Below are positions 3,889-56,525 of a stretch of DNA of 64,000 bases, piece after piece. Each line of letters begins with the position of its first letter. The first letter of the stretch is position 1. The notes beneath the pieces are model-generated. The model searched no databases. It saw nothing but the letters and a program-made list of their open reading frames with translations, and was not told the origin of the DNA. The DNA is taken from NCBI RefSeq assembly GCF_003334305.1, contig NZ_QOWS01000006.1; one strand, written 5' to 3'. Position numbers and translations under genes: made by a program. This DNA comes from Escherichia coli (GTDB lineage: Bacteria; Pseudomonadota; Gammaproteobacteria; Enterobacterales; Enterobacteriaceae).

Positions 3889-5482
3889 TTCGCCCCGGTA
3901 GTTTTTCAATCACGGTAAACAGCAGAAAACAGAGTAGTAGCAGAATTAACGCGGTGACCGCGCCGTCCTGGCTGCGATAGGAGCCAATTTGCTGGTAGAG
4001 ATAAAACGGCAGGGTACGGAAATCATCGTTACCGAACAACGCCACTACGCCAAAATCACCAATCGACAGCACGCAGGCAAAAGCCAGCGCCTGCGCCAGT
4101 GGACGTTTCAGGGCGTGCAGCTCGACCACTTTTAAGCGCGACCAGCCTTCAATGCCCAGCGACTGACACAATATACTGTAGCGGGCGGTGATATCGCGCA
4201 TCGGGTTTTCCAGTACTTTCAGCGCATAAGGGATCGCCATTAACGCATTGGTGAAAATCACAATGCCGTCAGCAGATTGTGGCAGGCCGATAGTGTTGTT
4301 GAGCAGTAAAAAGAAGCCGGTAGCCAGCACAATCCCCGGCATGGCGAGGATCAACATGCCGCTCATCTCCAGCGCCTGACCCGCCAGCATTTTCTGCCGC
4401 GCCCGCAGTTCGCGACTGCTCCATAGCAGCATCATGGTCAGCACTACGCACAATACACCTGCCGCCAGCGCAATACGCAACGAGGTCCACAGCGCCTGCC
4501 ACAGCACCGGTTGTGCCAGCACTTCCGGCAACTGGCGATTTACGCCATCGACGATCACCGCCAGCAACGGTGGCAGCAACAGCAGCAGCGCCAGCACTAT
4601 TAACACCGTGTCGCAAATGCGGCTATGCAGACGATCGTCCGGATCGCGCCAGCCTTGCAGCAGCGTGGTACCGGGCGCAATGGCCTTACTTAGTCGCTGA
4701 CTCAACAGCACCAGCCCAAGGCAACACACCATCTGGAGCAGCGCCAGCATCGCCGCGCGGGCAGGATCGTAGTCGTAACTCAGCGCCTGATAAATAGCCA
4801 GCTCGATAGTAGTTGCCTGCGGACCGCCGCCCAGCGATAGCACGGTGGCGAAGCTGGCGAAACAGAGCATAAAGATAAGCGCGGCAACCGGCGGGATTTG
4901 TCGCCGTAGCCACGGCCATTCGACGAAGCGGAAAAAATGCCAGCCGCGCATCCCAAGCTGGGCGGCAAGCTGACGTTGTTCGCCGGGAATGTTTTCCAGT
5001 GCCTGGAGTAATAAGCGGCTCGCCATCGGCAGATTAAAAAATACGTGCGCCAGCAAAATGCCTTGCAGGCCGTAGGGCGAAAAGGTCCACTCCAGACCGA
5101 GCGATTGGCAGAGCGATGCCAGCCAGCCCTGACGACCATAGACGCTAAGAATGCCGAAAACAGCAACTAGCACCGGGAGGATCAAGGTCATTGCGCACAG
5201 ACGCAACAGCGCCAGCCGACCCGGAAAGCGCCTGCGATAGAGGGCGCGGGCGAGGAATATCGCGGGTACGACAGAGAGTAGCGCCGAGAGAAACGCCTGC
5301 CAGAAGGAGAAGCGCACCACATGCCACAGGTAGCTGTCCTGCCAGACTGCCACCCAGTTACCCTGCGGCGCGTTCCACCACAGGGCGAGAAACGCCGCGA
5401 GCGCAACCGCTACCACCAGCGTGGCGGCGCTTACACCTGGAATTAACCAGCCGGGAATTAACGGCTGACGGCGCGTTGCCAT
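3872..5482 (-). CDS. thiP: Thiamine ABC transporter permease ThiP
   Basis: 536-aa polytopic membrane protein; overlaps thiQ start and thiB stop (operon thiBPQ). Confidence 0.93.
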
Positions 5483-8327: not shown

Positions 8328-8554
8328 GATGAAGCAAGGGGGTGCCCCATGCGTCAGTTTTATCAGCACTATTTTACCGCGACAGCGAAGTTGTGCTGGT
8401 TGCGTTGGTTAAGCGTCCCACAACGATTAACCATGCTTGAAGGACTGATGCAGTGGGATGACCGCAATTCTGAAAGTTGACTTGCCTGCATCATGTGTGA
8501 CTGAGTATTGGTGTAAAATCACCCGCCAGCAGATTATACCTGCTGGTTTTTTTT
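8328..8554 (+). ncRNA. sgrS: SgrS small RNA (dual-function: base-pairing sRNA plus sgrT mRNA)
   Basis: Divergent from sgrR; contains the sgrT ORF; 3' end has the conserved seed region (gtgtgactgagtattggtg) and an intrinsic terminator ccagcag-attatac-ctgctgg followed by an 8-T run (8526-8554). The 5' end is from memory of the annotation. Confidence 0.85.
8349..8480 (+). CDS. sgrT: SgrT, 43-aa inhibitor of glucose transporter PtsG, encoded within SgrS
   Basis: ATG at 8349 gives MRQFYQHYFTATAKLCWLRWLSVPQRLTMLEGLMQWDDRNSES. Confidence 0.85.
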   Translation: MRQFYQHYFTATAKLCWLRWLSVPQRLTMLEGLMQWDDRNSES

Positions 8555-22373: not shown

Positions 22374-24140
22374 ATGAAAGCAGCGGCGAAAACGCAGAAA
22401 CCAAAACGTCAGGAAGAACATGCCAACTTTATTAGTTGGCGTTTTGCGTTGTTATGCGGCTGTATTCTCCTGGCGCTGGCTTTTCTGCTCGGACGCGTAG
22501 CGTGGTTACAAGTTATCTCCCCGGATATGCTGGTGAAAGAGGGCGACATGCGTTCTCTTCGCGTTCAGCAAGTTTCCACCTCCCGCGGCATGATTACTGA
22601 CCGTTCTGGTCGCCCGTTAGCGGTGAGCGTGCCGGTAAAAGCGATTTGGGCTGACCCGAAAGAAGTGCATGACGCTGGCGGTATCAGCGTCGGTGACCGC
22701 TGGAAGGCGCTGGCTAACGCGCTCAATATTCCGCTGGATCAGCTTTCTGCCCGCATTAACGCCAACCCGAAAGGGCGCTTTATTTATCTGGCGCGTCAGG
22801 TAAACCCTGACATGGCGGACTACATCAAAAAATTGAAACTGCCGGGGATTCATCTGCGTGAAGAATCTCGCCGTTATTATCCATCCGGCGAAGTGACTGC
22901 TCACCTCATCGGCTTTACTAACGTCGATAGTCAGGGGATTGAGGGCGTTGAGAAGAGTTTCGATAAATGGCTTACCGGGCAGCCGGGTGAGCGCATTGTG
23001 CGTAAAGACCGCTATGGTCGCGTAATTGAAGATATTTCTTCTACTGACAGCCAGGCGGCGCACAACCTGGCGTTGAGTATTGATGAACGCTTGCAGGCGC
23101 TGGTTTATCGCGAACTGAACAACGCGGTGGCCTTTAACAAGGCTGAATCCGGTAGCGCCGTGCTGGTGGATGTCAACACCGGTGAAGTGCTGGCGATGGC
23201 TAACAGCCCGTCATACAACCCTAACAATCTGAGCGGCACGCCGAAAGAGGCGATGCGTAACCGTACCATCACCGACGTGTTTGAACCGGGCTCAACGGTT
23301 AAACCGATGGTGGTAATGACCGCGTTGCAACGTGGCGTGGTGCGGGAAAACTCGGTACTCAATACCATTCCTTATCGAATTAACGGCCACGAAATCAAAG
23401 ACGTGGCACGCTACAGCGAATTAACCCTGACCGGGGTATTACAGAAGTCGAGTAACGTCGGTGTTTCCAAGCTGGCGTTAGCGATGCCGTCCTCAGCGTT
23501 AGTAGATACTTACTCACGTTTTGGACTGGGAAAAGCGACCAATTTGGGGTTGGTCGGAGAACGCAGTGGCTTATATCCTCAAAAACAACGGTGGTCTGAC
23601 ATAGAGAGGGCCACCTTCTCTTTCGGCTACGGGCTAATGGTAACACCGTTACAGTTAGCGCGAGTCTACGCAACTATCGGCAGCTACGGCATTTATCGCC
23701 CACTGTCGATTACCAAAGTTGACCCCCCGGTTCCCGGTGAACGTGTCTTCCCGGAATCCATTGTTCGCACCGTGGTGCATATGATGGAAAGCGTGGCGCT
23801 ACCAGGCGGCGGCGGCGTGAAAGCGGCGATTAAAGGCTATCGTATCGCCATTAAAACCGGTACCGCGAAAAAGGTCGGGCCGGACGGTCGCTACATCAAT
23901 AAATATATTGCTTATACCGCAGGCGTTGCGCCTGCGAGTCAGCCGCGCTTCGCGCTGGTTGTTGTTATCAACGATCCGCAGGCGGGTAAATACTACGGCG
24001 GCGCCGTTTCCGCGCCGGTCTTTGGTGCCATCATGGGCGGCGTATTGCGTACCATGAACATCGAGCCGGATGCGCTGACAACGGGCGATAAAAATGAATT
24101 TGTGATTAATCAAGGCGAGGGGACAGGTGGCAGATCGTAA
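22374..24140 (+). CDS. ftsI: Peptidoglycan D,D-transpeptidase FtsI (PBP3)
   Basis: 588 aa with the STVK active-site motif (…[12 protein letters not shown]…), SSN and KTG motifs. Confidence 0.97.
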
Positions 24141-51022: not shown

Positions 51023-52396
51023 TTAATGCGCTTTTACGGCTTTGGCGGTTTTCTCTTTAAACAGATAGCCGATACCTAACACGATCAGCCATACCGGGAT
51101 CAGGTATACCGAAATCGCCATTCCTGGGGTCATCAGCATAATCACCAGTACCGCCGCCATAAACAGCAGGCAGATCCAGTTACCCAGCGGATAAAGCAGA
51201 GCAGGGAAGCGAGTTACCACGCCTTGTTCCTGCTTGGCGCGACGGAATTTCATATGCGCCAGGCTAATCATCGCCCAGTTGATTACCAGTGCAGATACCA
51301 CCAGCGCCATTAACAGTCCGAAAGCGGACTCTGGGGCAAGGTAGTTAATCAGTACGCACAACGCCGTTACCAGTGCAGACACCAGAATGGTATTTACTGG
51401 TACACCACGTTTATCGACAGACGCCAGCGCTTTTGGCGCATTACCCTGTTGTGCCAGACCAAACAGCATACGGCTGTTGCAATATACGCAGCTGTTGTAC
51501 ACGGAGAGCGCCGCAGTCAGTACCACGATGTTCAGCGCATTCGCCACAAAGGTATCGCCTAACTCGTGGAAGATCAGCACAAACGGACTGGTATCGGCGG
51601 TAACGCGGGTCCACGGCATCAGTGAGAGCAGAACGGCTAACGAACCAATATAGAAAATCAGGATGCGGTAGATAACCTGGTTAGTTGCTTTCGGTATACT
51701 TTGCTCCGGGTTATCAGCTTCTGCTGCGGTGATCCCCACCAGTTCCAGACCACCGAACGAGAACATGATAATCGCCATCATCATCACCAGCCCGGTGAAG
51801 CCGTGCGGCAGGAAACCACCCTGATCCCACAGGTTGCTAACGGTCGCCTGCGGGCCGCCGTTGCCACTGAATAGCAGCCAGCCGCCGAAGATGATCATCG
51901 CTACCACCGCGATAACTTTGATAATGGCAAACCAGAACTCCATCTCGCCAAACACTTTAACGTTGGTCAGGTTGATGGCGTTAATCACCACAAAGAATAC
52001 GGCGGCAGAAACCCAGGTGGGGATTTCCGGATACCAGAACTGAATGTATTTACCCACGGCAGTCAGCTCAGCCATGGCAACTAAAACGTACAGTACCCAG
52101 TAGTTCCAGCCAGAGGCGAAACCGGCAAAACTGCCCCAGTATTTATAAGCAAAGTGGCTAAAGGAGCCTGCGACAGGTTCTTCGACCACCATTTCACCCA
52201 GCTGACGCATGATCAGAAAGGCGATAAAACCAGCAATGGCGTAACCCAGGATAATCCCTGGCCCTGCGGACTGTATTACGGAGGCGCTACCCAGGAATAA
52301 CCCGGTCCCTATCGCGCCACCCAGCGCGATAAGCTGAATATGGCGGTTTTTAAGGCCGCGCTTTAGCTGCTCGCCGTGCTGTTGACCTTCCATCAT
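51023..52396 (-). CDS. aroP: Aromatic amino acid:H+ symporter AroP (APC family)
   Basis: 457 aa; MMEGQQHGEQLKRGLKNRHIQLIALGGAIGTGLFLGSASVIQSAGPGIILGYAIAGFIAFLIMRQLGEMVV... Confidence 0.96.
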   Translation of the reverse strand: MMEGQQHGEQLKRGLKNRHIQLIALGGAIGTGLFLGSASVIQSAGPGIILGYAIAGFIAFLIMRQLGEMVVEEPVAGSFSHFAYKYWGSFAGFASGWNYWVLYVLVAMAELTAVGKYIQFWYPEIPTWVSAAVFFVVINAINLTNVKVFGEMEFWFAIIKVIAVVAMIIFGGWLLFSGNGGPQATVSNLWDQGGFLPHGFTGLVMMMAIIMFSFGGLELVGITAAEADNPEQSIPKATNQVIYRILIFYIGSLAVLLSLMPWTRVTADTSPFVLIFHELGDTFVANALNIVVLTAALSVYNSCVYCNSRMLFGLAQQGNAPKALASVDKRGVPVNTILVSALVTALCVLINYLAPESAFGLLMALVVSALVINWAMISLAHMKFRRAKQEQGVVTRFPALLYPLGNWICLLFMAAVLVIMLMTPGMAISVYLIPVWLIVLGIGYLFKEKTAKAVKAH

Positions 52397-52484: not shown

Positions 52485-52888
52485 TCAAAGAAGTTTGAAT
52501 TGTTACAAAAAGACTTCCGTCAGATCAAGAATAATGGTATGAGGCAGCGAATGCACCCGCTTTATGCATGGTTGAAGATGAGTTGCTTAAAAAGAAACCG
52601 TTTGTAAAGCTCAGCCTCAACCCCTCTCAATATGTAGAATGAATTTAAATTCGTTTTAATTGAATTAAAAATCACAAAATTGGTAAGTGAATCGGTTCAA
52701 TTCGGATTTTTATAGTTTAATAATCGTTAAAAAACTCCTTTCCTACGTAAAGTCTACATTTGTGCATAGTTACAACTTTGAAACGTTATATATGTCAAGT
52801 TGTTAAAATGTGCACAGTTTCATGATTTCAATCAAAACCTGTATGGACATAAGGTGAATACTTTGTTACTTTAGCGTCACAGACATGA

Positions 52889-52905
52889 AATTGGTAAGAC
52901 CAATT
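52889..52905. promoter_or_regulatory. PdhR operator (autoregulatory site of the pdhR-aceEF-lpd operon)
   Basis: Palindrome AATTGGTAAGACCAATT, ~30 bp upstream of the pdhR start; matches the established PdhR box. Confidence 0.85.
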
Positions 52906-52936: not shown

Positions 52937-53701
52937 ATGGCCTACAGCAAAATCCGCCAACCAAAACTCTCCGATGTGATTGAGCAGCAACTGGAGTTTT
53001 TGATCCTCGAAGGCACTCTCCGCCCGGGCGAAAAACTCCCACCGGAACGCGAACTGGCAAAACAGTTTGACGTCTCCCGTCCCTCCTTGCGTGAGGCGAT
53101 TCAACGTCTCGAAGCGAAGGGCTTGTTGCTTCGTCGCCAGGGTGGCGGCACTTTTGTCCAGAGCAGCCTATGGCAAAGCTTCAGCGATCCGCTGGTGGAG
53201 CTGCTCTCCGACCATCCTGAGTCACAGTATGACTTGCTCGAAACACGACACGCCCTGGAAGGTATCGCCGCTTATTACGCCGCGCTGCGTAGTACCGATG
53301 AAGACAAGGAACGCATCCGTGAACTCCACCACGCCATAGAGCTGGCGCAGCAGTCTGGCGATCTGGACGCGGAATCAAACGCCGTACTCCAGTATCAGAT
53401 TGCCGTCACCGAAGCGGCCCACAATGTGGTTCTGCTTCATCTGCTAAGGTGTATGGAGCCGATGTTGGCCCAGAATGTCCGCCAGAACTTCGAATTGCTC
53501 TATTCGCGTCGCGAGATGCTGCCGCTGGTGAGTAGTCACCGCACCCGCATATTTGAAGCGATTATGGCCGGTAAGCCGGAAGAAGCGCGCGAAGCATCGC
53601 ATCGCCATCTGGCCTTTATCGAAGAAATTTTGCTCGACAGAAGTCGTGAAGAGAGCCGCCGTGAGCGTTCTCTGCGTCGTCTGGAGCAACGAAAGAATTA
53701 G
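52937..53701 (+). CDS. pdhR: Pyruvate dehydrogenase complex repressor PdhR (GntR/FadR family)
   Basis: [64 protein letters not shown]..., 254 aa; start internal to ORF-track 52904. Confidence 0.95.
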
Positions 53702-53861: not shown

Positions 53862-56525
53862 ATGTCAGAACGTTTCCCAAATGACGTGGATCCGATCGAA
53901 ACTCGCGACTGGCTCCAGGCGATCGAATCGGTCATCCGTGAAGAAGGTGTTGAGCGTGCTCAGTATCTGATCGACCAACTGCTTGCTGAAGCCCGCAAAG
54001 GCGGTGTAAACGTAGCCGCAGGCACAGGTATCAGCAACTACATCAACACCATCCCCGTTGAAGAACAACCGGAGTATCCGGGTAATCTGGAACTGGAACG
54101 CCGTATTCGTTCAGCTATCCGCTGGAACGCCATCATGACGGTGCTGCGTGCGTCGAAAAAAGACCTCGAACTGGGCGGCCATATGGCGTCCTTCCAGTCT
54201 TCCGCAACCATTTATGATGTGTGCTTTAACCACTTCTTCCGTGCACGCAACGAGCAGGATGGCGGCGACCTGGTTTACTTCCAGGGCCACATCTCCCCGG
54301 GCGTGTACGCTCGTGCTTTCCTGGAAGGTCGTCTGACTCAGGAGCAGCTGGATAACTTCCGTCAGGAAGTTCACGGCAATGGCCTCTCTTCCTATCCGCA
54401 CCCGAAACTGATGCCGGAATTCTGGCAGTTCCCGACCGTATCTATGGGTCTGGGGCCGATTGGTGCTATTTACCAGGCTAAATTCCTGAAATATCTGGAA
54501 CACCGTGGCCTGAAAGATACCTCTAAACAGACCGTTTACGCGTTCCTCGGCGACGGTGAAATGGACGAACCGGAATCCAAAGGTGCGATCACCATCGCTA
54601 CCCGTGAAAAACTGGATAACCTGGTCTTCGTTATCAACTGTAACCTGCAGCGTCTTGACGGCCCGGTCACCGGTAACGGCAAGATCATCAACGAACTGGA
54701 AGGCATCTTCGAAGGTGCTGGCTGGAACGTGATCAAAGTGATGTGGGGTAGCCGTTGGGATGAACTGCTGCGTAAAGATACCAGCGGTAAACTGATCCAG
54801 CTGATGAACGAAACCGTTGACGGCGACTACCAGACCTTCAAATCGAAAGATGGTGCGTACGTTCGTGAACACTTCTTCGGTAAATATCCTGAAACCGCAG
54901 CACTGGTTGCAGACTGGACTGACGAGCAGATCTGGGCACTGAACCGTGGTGGTCACGATCCGAAGAAAATCTACGCTGCATTCAAGAAAGCGCAGGAAAC
55001 CAAAGGCAAAGCGACAGTAATCCTTGCTCATACCATTAAAGGTTACGGCATGGGCGACGCGGCTGAAGGTAAAAACATCGCGCACCAGGTTAAGAAAATG
55101 AACATGGACGGCGTGCGTCACATCCGCGACCGTTTCAATGTGCCGGTGTCTGATGCAGATATCGAAAAACTGCCGTACATCACCTTCCCGGAAGGTTCTG
55201 AAGAGCATACCTATCTGCACGCACAGCGTCAGAAACTGCACGGTTATCTGCCAAGCCGTCAGCCGAACTTCACCGAGAAGCTTGAGCTGCCGAGCCTGCA
55301 AGACTTCGGCGCGCTGCTGGAAGAGCAGAGCAAAGAGATCTCTACCACTATCGCTTTCGTTCGTGCCCTGAACGTAATGCTGAAGAACAAGTCGATCAAA
55401 GATCGTCTGGTACCGATCATCGCCGACGAAGCGCGTACTTTCGGTATGGAAGGTCTGTTCCGTCAGATTGGTATTTACAGCCCGAACGGTCAGCAGTACA
55501 CCCCGCAGGACCGCGAGCAGGTTGCTTACTATAAAGAAGACGAGAAAGGTCAGATTCTGCAGGAAGGGATCAACGAGTTGGGCGCAGGTTGTTCCTGGCT
55601 GGCAGCGGCGACCTCTTACAGCACCAACAATCTGCCGATGATTCCGTTCTACATCTATTACTCGATGTTCGGCTTCCAGCGTATCGGCGATCTGTGCTGG
55701 GCGGCTGGCGACCAGCAAGCGCGTGGCTTCCTGATCGGCGGTACTTCCGGTCGTACCACCCTGAACGGTGAAGGTCTGCAGCACGAAGATGGTCACAGCC
55801 ACATTCAGTCGCTGACTATCCCGAACTGTATCTCTTACGACCCGGCTTACGCTTACGAAGTTGCTGTCATTATGCATGACGGTCTGGAGCGTATGTACGG
55901 TGAAAAACAAGAGAACGTTTACTACTACATCACTACGCTGAACGAAAACTACCACATGCCGGCAATGCCGGAAGGTGCTGAGGAAGGTATCCGTAAAGGT
56001 ATCTACAAACTCGAAACCATTGAAGGTAGCAAAGGTAAAGTTCAGCTGCTGGGCTCCGGTTCCATCCTGCGTCACGTCCGTGAAGCGGCAGAGATCCTGG
56101 CGAAAGATTACGGCGTAGGTTCTGACGTTTATAGCGTGACCTCCTTCACCGAACTGGCGCGAGATGGTCAGGATTGTGAACGCTGGAACATGCTGCACCC
56201 GCTGGAAACTCCGCGCGTTCCGTATATCGCTCAGGTGATGAACGACGCTCCGGCAGTGGCATCTACCGACTATATGAAACTGTTCGCTGAGCAGGTCCGT
56301 ACTTACGTACCGGCTGACGACTACCGCGTACTGGGTACTGATGGCTTCGGTCGTTCCGACAGCCGTGAGAACCTGCGTCACCACTTCGAAGTTGATGCTT
56401 CCTACGTGGTTGTAGCGGCGCTGGGCGAACTGGCTAAACGTGGCGAAATCGATAAGAAAGTGGTTGCTGACGCAATCGCCAAATTCAACATCGATGCAGA
56501 TAAAGTTAACCCGCGTCTGGCGTAA
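53862..56525 (+). CDS. aceE: Pyruvate dehydrogenase E1 component AceE
   Basis: 887 aa; [48 protein letters not shown]... Confidence 0.98.

Follow-up and report, generated by a model that had tools for sequence, protein, structure and literature searches.

The isolated copy of a PdhR operator arm upstream of Escherichia coli pdhR is most probably a chance similarity specific to Escherichia

The spacer between aroP and pdhR of Escherichia coli contains the full operator of the repressor PdhR and, about 200 bp upstream, a second exact copy of the left arm of this operator. We conclude that this distal copy is most probably a chance similarity, specific to Escherichia and with no demonstrable role for PdhR. 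An earlier note, made from the letters of the same DNA, had proposed that such a half-site could either support looping or be coincidental. Coincidence is favoured here because the distal copy is not conserved, has one arm only and scores at background level with a weight matrix for PdhR. The 17-bp palindrome downstream of the pdhR promoter is the classical PdhR operator, and in the model that we propose it would work alone: a PdhR dimer bound from +11 to +27 would repress pdhR-aceEF-lpd until released by pyruvate. The distal sequence would have arisen in the Escherichia lineage through point substitutions, within a gap of the spacer that is free of constraint. As it offers one arm only, it would be no better for PdhR than hundreds of background positions. 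Any constraint acting on it would be due to neighbouring elements, the AG at its end being the 5' edge of a Cra/FruR-type box.

All coordinates given below, unless otherwise stated, refer to the window, i.e. the whole 64-kb stretch of E. coli DNA that was analysed; K-12 coordinates are obtained by adding 69155 to them. The gene context described in the earlier note was confirmed, since the distal copy lies in the spacer between the divergent genes aroP (51023-52396, minus strand) and pdhR (52937-53701, plus strand), with aceE starting at 53862. The pdhR product (254 aa) is a GntR protein of the FadR subfamily and matches the two PdhR domains present in PDB (5tpm and 5kvr). The aroP-pdhR spacer (541 bp) is 100% identical to that of strain E2865 and 99.8% identical to that of K-12 derivatives. 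Transcription of pdhR starts at an A located 58 nt before the ATG (PMC2759082), which corresponds to position 52879. The promoter (52844-52879, plus strand) would have TGGACA (52844-52849) as its -35 hexamer and TACTTT (52867-52872) as its -10 hexamer, as judged from their sequence. A scan of the spacer for sigma-70 promoters and terminators produced no matches, which leaves the distal copy outside any consensus promoter.

The palindrome that had been designated as a PdhR operator at 52889-52905 was validated on all counts: AATTGGTAAGACCAATT is present at this position, from +11 to +27 of the pdhR-aceEF-lpd promoter, it is identical to a published box with a 14/14 match, and it is invariant across species. 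This box is listed at K-12 position 122052 in a genomic SELEX (gSELEX) table (Table 1, PMC7660256). We scored the 63,984 positions of the window with a symmetrised weight matrix (PWM) built from 28 published gSELEX boxes. The operator ranked first, with a score of 22.0 bits. For comparison between species, the pdhR locus was taken from 80 species-representative genomes of Enterobacteriaceae and Serratia, and 330 bp upstream of the gene were aligned with MAFFT, identity being measured against the window sequence. Both arms of the operator were identical in 80/80 species, at -47 to -65 from the pdhR ATG, and the conservation of the operator columns reached 99%. The PdhR box of the pdhR-aceEF-lpd promoter was reportedly described by Quail and Guest in 1995, with the consensus AATTGGTnnnACCAATT and the core GGTnnnACC. 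The site at 52889-52905 corresponds to this box in its sequence, in its position from +11 to +27 and in its universal conservation. Elsewhere in the window, the second-best PWM score (13.4 bits) was obtained for TAATGGTAACACCGTTA at 23635-23651. This is apparently the published 'type-D' gSELEX peak of PdhR inside ftsI, which is given there as tAaTGGTaacACCAtTa.

We then examined the distal copy itself. The left half of the operator, AATTGGTAAG, was found at 52678-52687, exactly where the earlier note had put it. This 10-mer is present only twice in 64 kb when both strands are searched (0.10 copies expected; 0/100 shuffles reached two). The distance of about 210 bp given previously is precisely 211 bp from start to start, and the exact identity extends one base further than had been noticed, the 11-mer AAATTGGTAAG being present at both 52677-52687 and 52888-52898. 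The distal copy (plus strand, -202 to -192 from the transcription start) thus comprises the left arm and the spacer of the operator, without the right arm. The pair is the sole direct repeat of at least 9 nt in the aroP-pdhR spacer. In order to estimate how often such copies appear by chance, we used a first-order Markov model of the upstream spacer (492 bp). The arm of 7 nt read by PdhR (AATTGGT/ACCAATT) occurred in 15% of the random spacers, any 10-mer of the operator in 0.65% and an 11-mer of the operator including its flank in 0.5%, while some direct 11-mer repeat, of any sequence, was found in 12%. The window contains eight AATTGGT/ACCAATT 7-mers, five of which have no relation to pdhR. 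At the level of a 10-mer or 11-mer the repeat is real and nominally unusual; as a recognised half-site it is unremarkable. As the 7-mer half-site is common by chance, the surprise rests on the three to four extra bases, which fall in the central 'nnn' of the box. A perfect 12-bp palindrome, GAATTTAAATTC (52640-52652), lies within an inverted repeat some 35 bp upstream of the distal copy; its conservation is partial in Escherichia and moderate across genera.

Tight binding of PdhR was concluded to require GGTnnnACC in the gSELEX study, which gives a single box for the aroP-pdhR spacer (PMC7660256). The 17-mer at the distal position, AATTGGTAAGTGAATCG, matches the consensus at 8/14 positions, which 603 17-mers in the window equal or exceed, and its right core is TGA where ACC is expected (0/3). 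Its PWM score of 1.65 bits ranked 364 of 63,984. Whereas a PdhR box has two arms, the distal copy consists of a left arm and its AAG spacer only; it has neither the palindromic core nor a PWM score in the range of bound sites, and with one arm it does not provide the complete second operator of a repression loop. Useful binding of PdhR to the distal copy is therefore not expected. A right arm was also looked for at other spacings. AATTG and CAATT arms separated by a 15-bp gap bracket the neighbouring Cra-type box, and the AATCGGT inside this box is a 6/7 direct repeat of the half-site, 12 bp away from it; both were judged incidental. The centre of the gSELEX peak, at K-12 position 121966, is located 86 bp from the box, and the same table commonly shows offsets of 80-170 bp (PMC7660256). 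The peak has the distal copy (121833-121842) on one side and the box (122052) on the other, which was considered as evidence for the former and rejected, such offsets being routine. At grcA and ndh, moreover, the peak offsets point away from the isolated half-site copies of those spacers.

The earlier note had named non-conservation beforehand as the observation that would count against a role for the distal copy. Conservation was found to be absent outside Escherichia, and within E. coli the half-site is replaced in about 20% of the genomes. Over the 80 species, the columns of the distal 10-mer were 35% conserved, a value not above that of weakly conserved parts of the spacer, and neither the distal site nor its spacing was kept in relatives. 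An exact AATTGGT was present at this position in E. coli and Escherichia sp. E1V33 only. E. albertii carries AGTTGGT, with one mismatch, which is consistent with ordinary point substitution, and unrelated sequence is found in Salmonella, Citrobacter, Klebsiella, Enterobacter, Kosakonia and others. Only 6/80 loci had a further isolated 7-mer in the 700 bp preceding pdhR, below the chance rate of 15% per 492 bp. This indicates that half-sites have not simply moved to other places in these spacers.

Among 5,426 complete E. coli genomes, 4,344-4,364 have the K-12-type upstream block, and the 40-mer at 52676-52715 is exact in 4,327 of them. In the divergent non-B2 strains that were sampled, it is the entire block from 52676 to about 52735 that is invariant, and not the 10-mer specifically, polymorphism beginning directly upstream of 52677. 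About 1,057 of the 5,426 genomes have TGTTGCTTGG at the position of the distal 10-mer, the core GGT being changed to GCT; the same genomes have an intact PdhR operator and an intact Cra-like box at -250. These are the carriers of PAIusp (e.g. CFT073 and ST131), a usp-imu1-3 island present between aroP and pdhR in 1,057/5,426 complete genomes, whose insertion in this spacer has been published (PMC7142922). The segment replaced or diverged in PAIusp-carrying strains (CFT073, ST131) extends from about 52576 to 52746 and includes the distal copy; megablast homology resumes at 52747 and 52795 of the window (query 351 and 399) for ST131 and CFT073.

We compared the spacers of four further strong PdhR targets, cyoA, lldP, ndh and grcA-ung, in a K-12-derived genome. 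No isolated half-site was present in the cyoA spacer. The ycfP-ndh spacer has an isolated AATTGGT (507-513 of the fetched locus L093) 107 bp from its own box. In the spacer of grcA-ung, the second-strongest gSELEX target of PdhR, an isolated ACCAATT is located 146 bp from the box and extends to AATTGGTAAAA, an exact 11-nt copy of the arm and spacer of this box (in NZ_CP053603.1, copy at 8504-8514 and box at 8358-8374 of locus L094). The yibL-lldP spacer contains two full PdhR/LldR-type boxes, AATTGGCCCTACCAATT and AATTGGCAGTGCCACTT, 126 bp apart (8374-8390 and 8500-8516 of locus L095), and this pair is the arrangement of a true two-operator system in the regulator subfamily of PdhR. Under the Markov null, the probability that at least two of four spacers have an isolated 7-mer was 0.043, and the probability that at least one of four has a self-copy of an 11-mer or longer was 0.023. 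The isolated copy of grcA is kept in divergent E. coli haplotypes. It was absent in all six other genera fetched (Salmonella, Klebsiella, Enterobacter, Kluyvera, Pluralibacter and Cronobacter), and the main grcA box was invariant in five of these six, with one base different in Cronobacter. The pattern of isolated copies is modestly non-random in E. coli but lineage-specific at pdhR and grcA. We take it as the starting point of the more general proposal on orphan half-sites considered below, and not as support for function.

The distal copy is immediately followed, with no gap, by a putative Cra/FruR-type box, TGAATCGGTTCA (52688-52699). Together with the preceding AG (52686-52687) this box reads AGTGAATCGGTTCA, a 14/14 match to the 14-nt Cra consensus RSTGAAWCSNTHHW. 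Its match to the palindromic core TGAAWCGWTTCA (11/12) is the best in 64 kb, where only two positions, including this one, are within one mismatch of the core. The box was 93% conserved in the 80 species and was present as TGAA[ATC]CG[GC]TTC[AG] at -248 to -266 from the ATG in 73/80, its variants falling only at degenerate positions of the consensus (W5 and S/N8, as in TGAA[T/A]CG[G/C]TTCA). The likeness to Cra (FruR) operators is thus a property of this conserved 12-mer on the 3' side of the distal copy, and not of the half-site. The pdhR-aceEF-lpd operon is repressed by Cra and belongs to its ChIP-exo/RNA-seq regulon, for which the motif gcTGAAtCGaTTCAgc was given (PMC5888115). In the same work, the in vivo Cra site for pdhR is placed 'downstream of two promoters', which has no obvious fit with the -186 position of TGAATCGGTTCA (PMC5888115). 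For this reason, we only infer binding of Cra to this box. A full-text literature search for TGAATCGGTTCA returned nothing other than unrelated eukaryotic primer sequences. Inside pdhR, at +214 from the transcription start, TGAGGCGATTCA (53092-53103) has a perfect Cra right half and a left half with two mismatches; judging by its sequence, it may be a candidate for the Cra site placed downstream of the promoters.

Several other regulatory sites follow in the direction of pdhR. The published ArcA site 'pdhR1', TAGTTTAATAATCGTTAAAAA (52713-52733, plus strand; K-12 121868-121888; -167 to -146; PMC3798270 supplement), begins 13 bp beyond TGAATCGGTTCA, and its GTTT..GTTAAA block is conserved in the 80 species. 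A second match to the Cra consensus, TGAAACGTTATA (52779-52790, plus strand; -100 to -89), is a candidate found by pattern matching and lies inside a conserved block with conservation digits of 8-9 over the 80 species. The published FNR site ATGATTTCAATCAA (52822-52835; K-12 121977; PMC3688515 supplementary file 6) is invariant in the 80 species, and the published ArcA site 'pdhR2' (52852-52872; PMC3798270 supplement) covers the -10 region of the pdhR promoter. The distal copy occupies the only gap free of constraint, at the upstream limit of this dense conserved regulatory block. The outcome of the analysis is mainly a clean negative together with a better map of the spacer, in which the conserved element found at this place is the Cra-type box, beside the published ArcA, FNR and PdhR sites.

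The distal copy might alternatively be an auxiliary PdhR half-site specific to Escherichia. A second dimer, through one of its subunits, or an oligomer of higher order would dock weakly on AATTGGTAA(G) and would either be stabilised through a loop of about 20 turns to the operator-bound dimer or raise the local amount of PdhR, producing a sharper autorepression. The sharing of an 11-mer with the operator (P ~0.005, Markov null) argues in this direction, as do the presence of isolated half-box copies at E. coli grcA-ung and ycfP-ndh (replication p 0.02-0.04), the related lldP spacer with its two full boxes 126 bp apart, and the agreement of the GGTAA extension into the spacer with the A-rich centre of strong PdhR sites. 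The distance of 211 bp corresponds to 20.1 helical turns at 10.5 bp/turn and would place the two copies on the same face, a single case to which we give little weight. A mutant site at LEE1 retaining only the left arm was bound weakly by PdhR in EMSA, at micromolar protein (PMC11508082). However, the copy has no right arm, it scores at background level with the PWM, it is not conserved, and extra half-sites are not enriched in the 80 species. The half-site is missing from the roughly 1,057 E. coli genomes that retain the operator, the grcA copy from six other genera, and the gSELEX offsets at grcA and ndh are directed away from the isolated copies. PdhR-His furthermore purifies as monomer and dimer, the only forms reported (PMC11508082), and in ChIP modelling one additive energy matrix without cooperativity accounts for PdhR occupancy (PMC12059191). 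We consider an auxiliary role quite improbable. The looping envisaged in the earlier note was not borne out, the distal half-site being non-conserved, replaced within E. coli and no PdhR site by either consensus or PWM. In the lac (O1/O2/O3) and gal (OE/OI) systems, auxiliary operators act by DNA looping, and the distal copy resembles them as a second element about 200 bp away on the same helical face. A looping model is also said to have been put forward by Aguilera et al. in 2008 for the O1 and O2 operators of LldR, of the FadR subfamily, at lldPRD. The lac, gal and LldR systems nevertheless use complete second operators and a bridging repressor, whereas here there is a half-site only, and it is not conserved. 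NanR, another member of the FadR subfamily, binds cooperatively to tandem GGTATA repeats and not to a palindrome, and its structures (PDB 6on4, 6wfq and 6wg7) are among the structural relatives of PdhR. It illustrates that a FadR-type regulator is able to use non-palindromic repeated half-sites, but the NanR repeats are adjacent, whereas the present copies are 211 bp apart and the known PdhR sites are palindromic. A function specific to Escherichia would be compatible with the non-conservation of the distal copy. The more general proposal, that the strong PdhR promoters of Escherichia (pdhR, grcA and perhaps ndh) each gained an orphan half-site (one arm and the spacer of their own box) 100-210 bp away, as a weak auxiliary docking site that would tune pyruvate-responsive repression by looping or by local concentration, appears to us very improbable. 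If it were true, an orphan half-site auxiliary operator would be a lineage-specific design undescribed for GntR/FadR-family repressors. A functional distal copy would make PdhR the first FadR-type repressor for which looping at its own promoter through an orphan half-site is shown, and would imply a different control of pyruvate dehydrogenase in PAIusp-carrying uropathogenic E. coli.

Two further explanations do not require PdhR. The 3' end of the 10-mer (AG, possibly GTAAG) could be the left flank of the 14-nt Cra consensus, within the footprint of Cra, in which case the constraint on it would be related to this regulator. The 14/14 match, the 93% conservation of the box at a fixed distance in 73/80 species and the repression of pdhR-aceEF-lpd by Cra in the ChIP-exo/RNA-seq data all fit such a reading. 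We still regard it as unlikely, as the flank positions carry little information in the Cra motif and differ from genus to genus (GT, GG, AC or AT), and as it accounts for at most 2-5 of the 11 bases; the site reported downstream of two promoters is a poor fit with -186, TGAGGCGATTCA at 53092 being a weaker candidate for it. It can also be imagined that the copies were made without selection by mutation acting locally, for instance through template switching between similar sequences close to each other or through short-patch templated repair. The pdhR and grcA spacers each hold an exact 11-nt self-copy that includes spacer bases not contacted by the protein, and both copies are lineage-specific. 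There are only two such cases, however, and the one-mismatch form of E. albertii fits point substitution. To our knowledge, template switching between direct or inverted 11-mers located 146-211 bp apart has no precedent, and we find this explanation hardly credible. Chance similarity is thus the reading that we retain for the distal copy.

The stretch of spacer that carries the copy in K-12-type genomes borders a horizontally acquired island in about one fifth of E. coli genomes. The flank of PAIusp was compared using two fetched loci (L001, 1393-7000, and L083, 1045-6000). Its pdhR-proximal part is a distinct haplotype, closer to Salmonella and Citrobacter than to K-12 (e.g. GGGTAAATTTAACA versus ACGTAAAGTCTACA). 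This suggests that the flank may have been imported along with the island. In CFT073, an IS3-family element (L001, 5748-6961) is inserted some 77 bp before the transcription start of pdhR, at a position equivalent to about 52802 of the window. This element cuts the promoter off from the distal ArcA site and from the Cra-like boxes, only 143 bp of native sequence remaining before the ATG.
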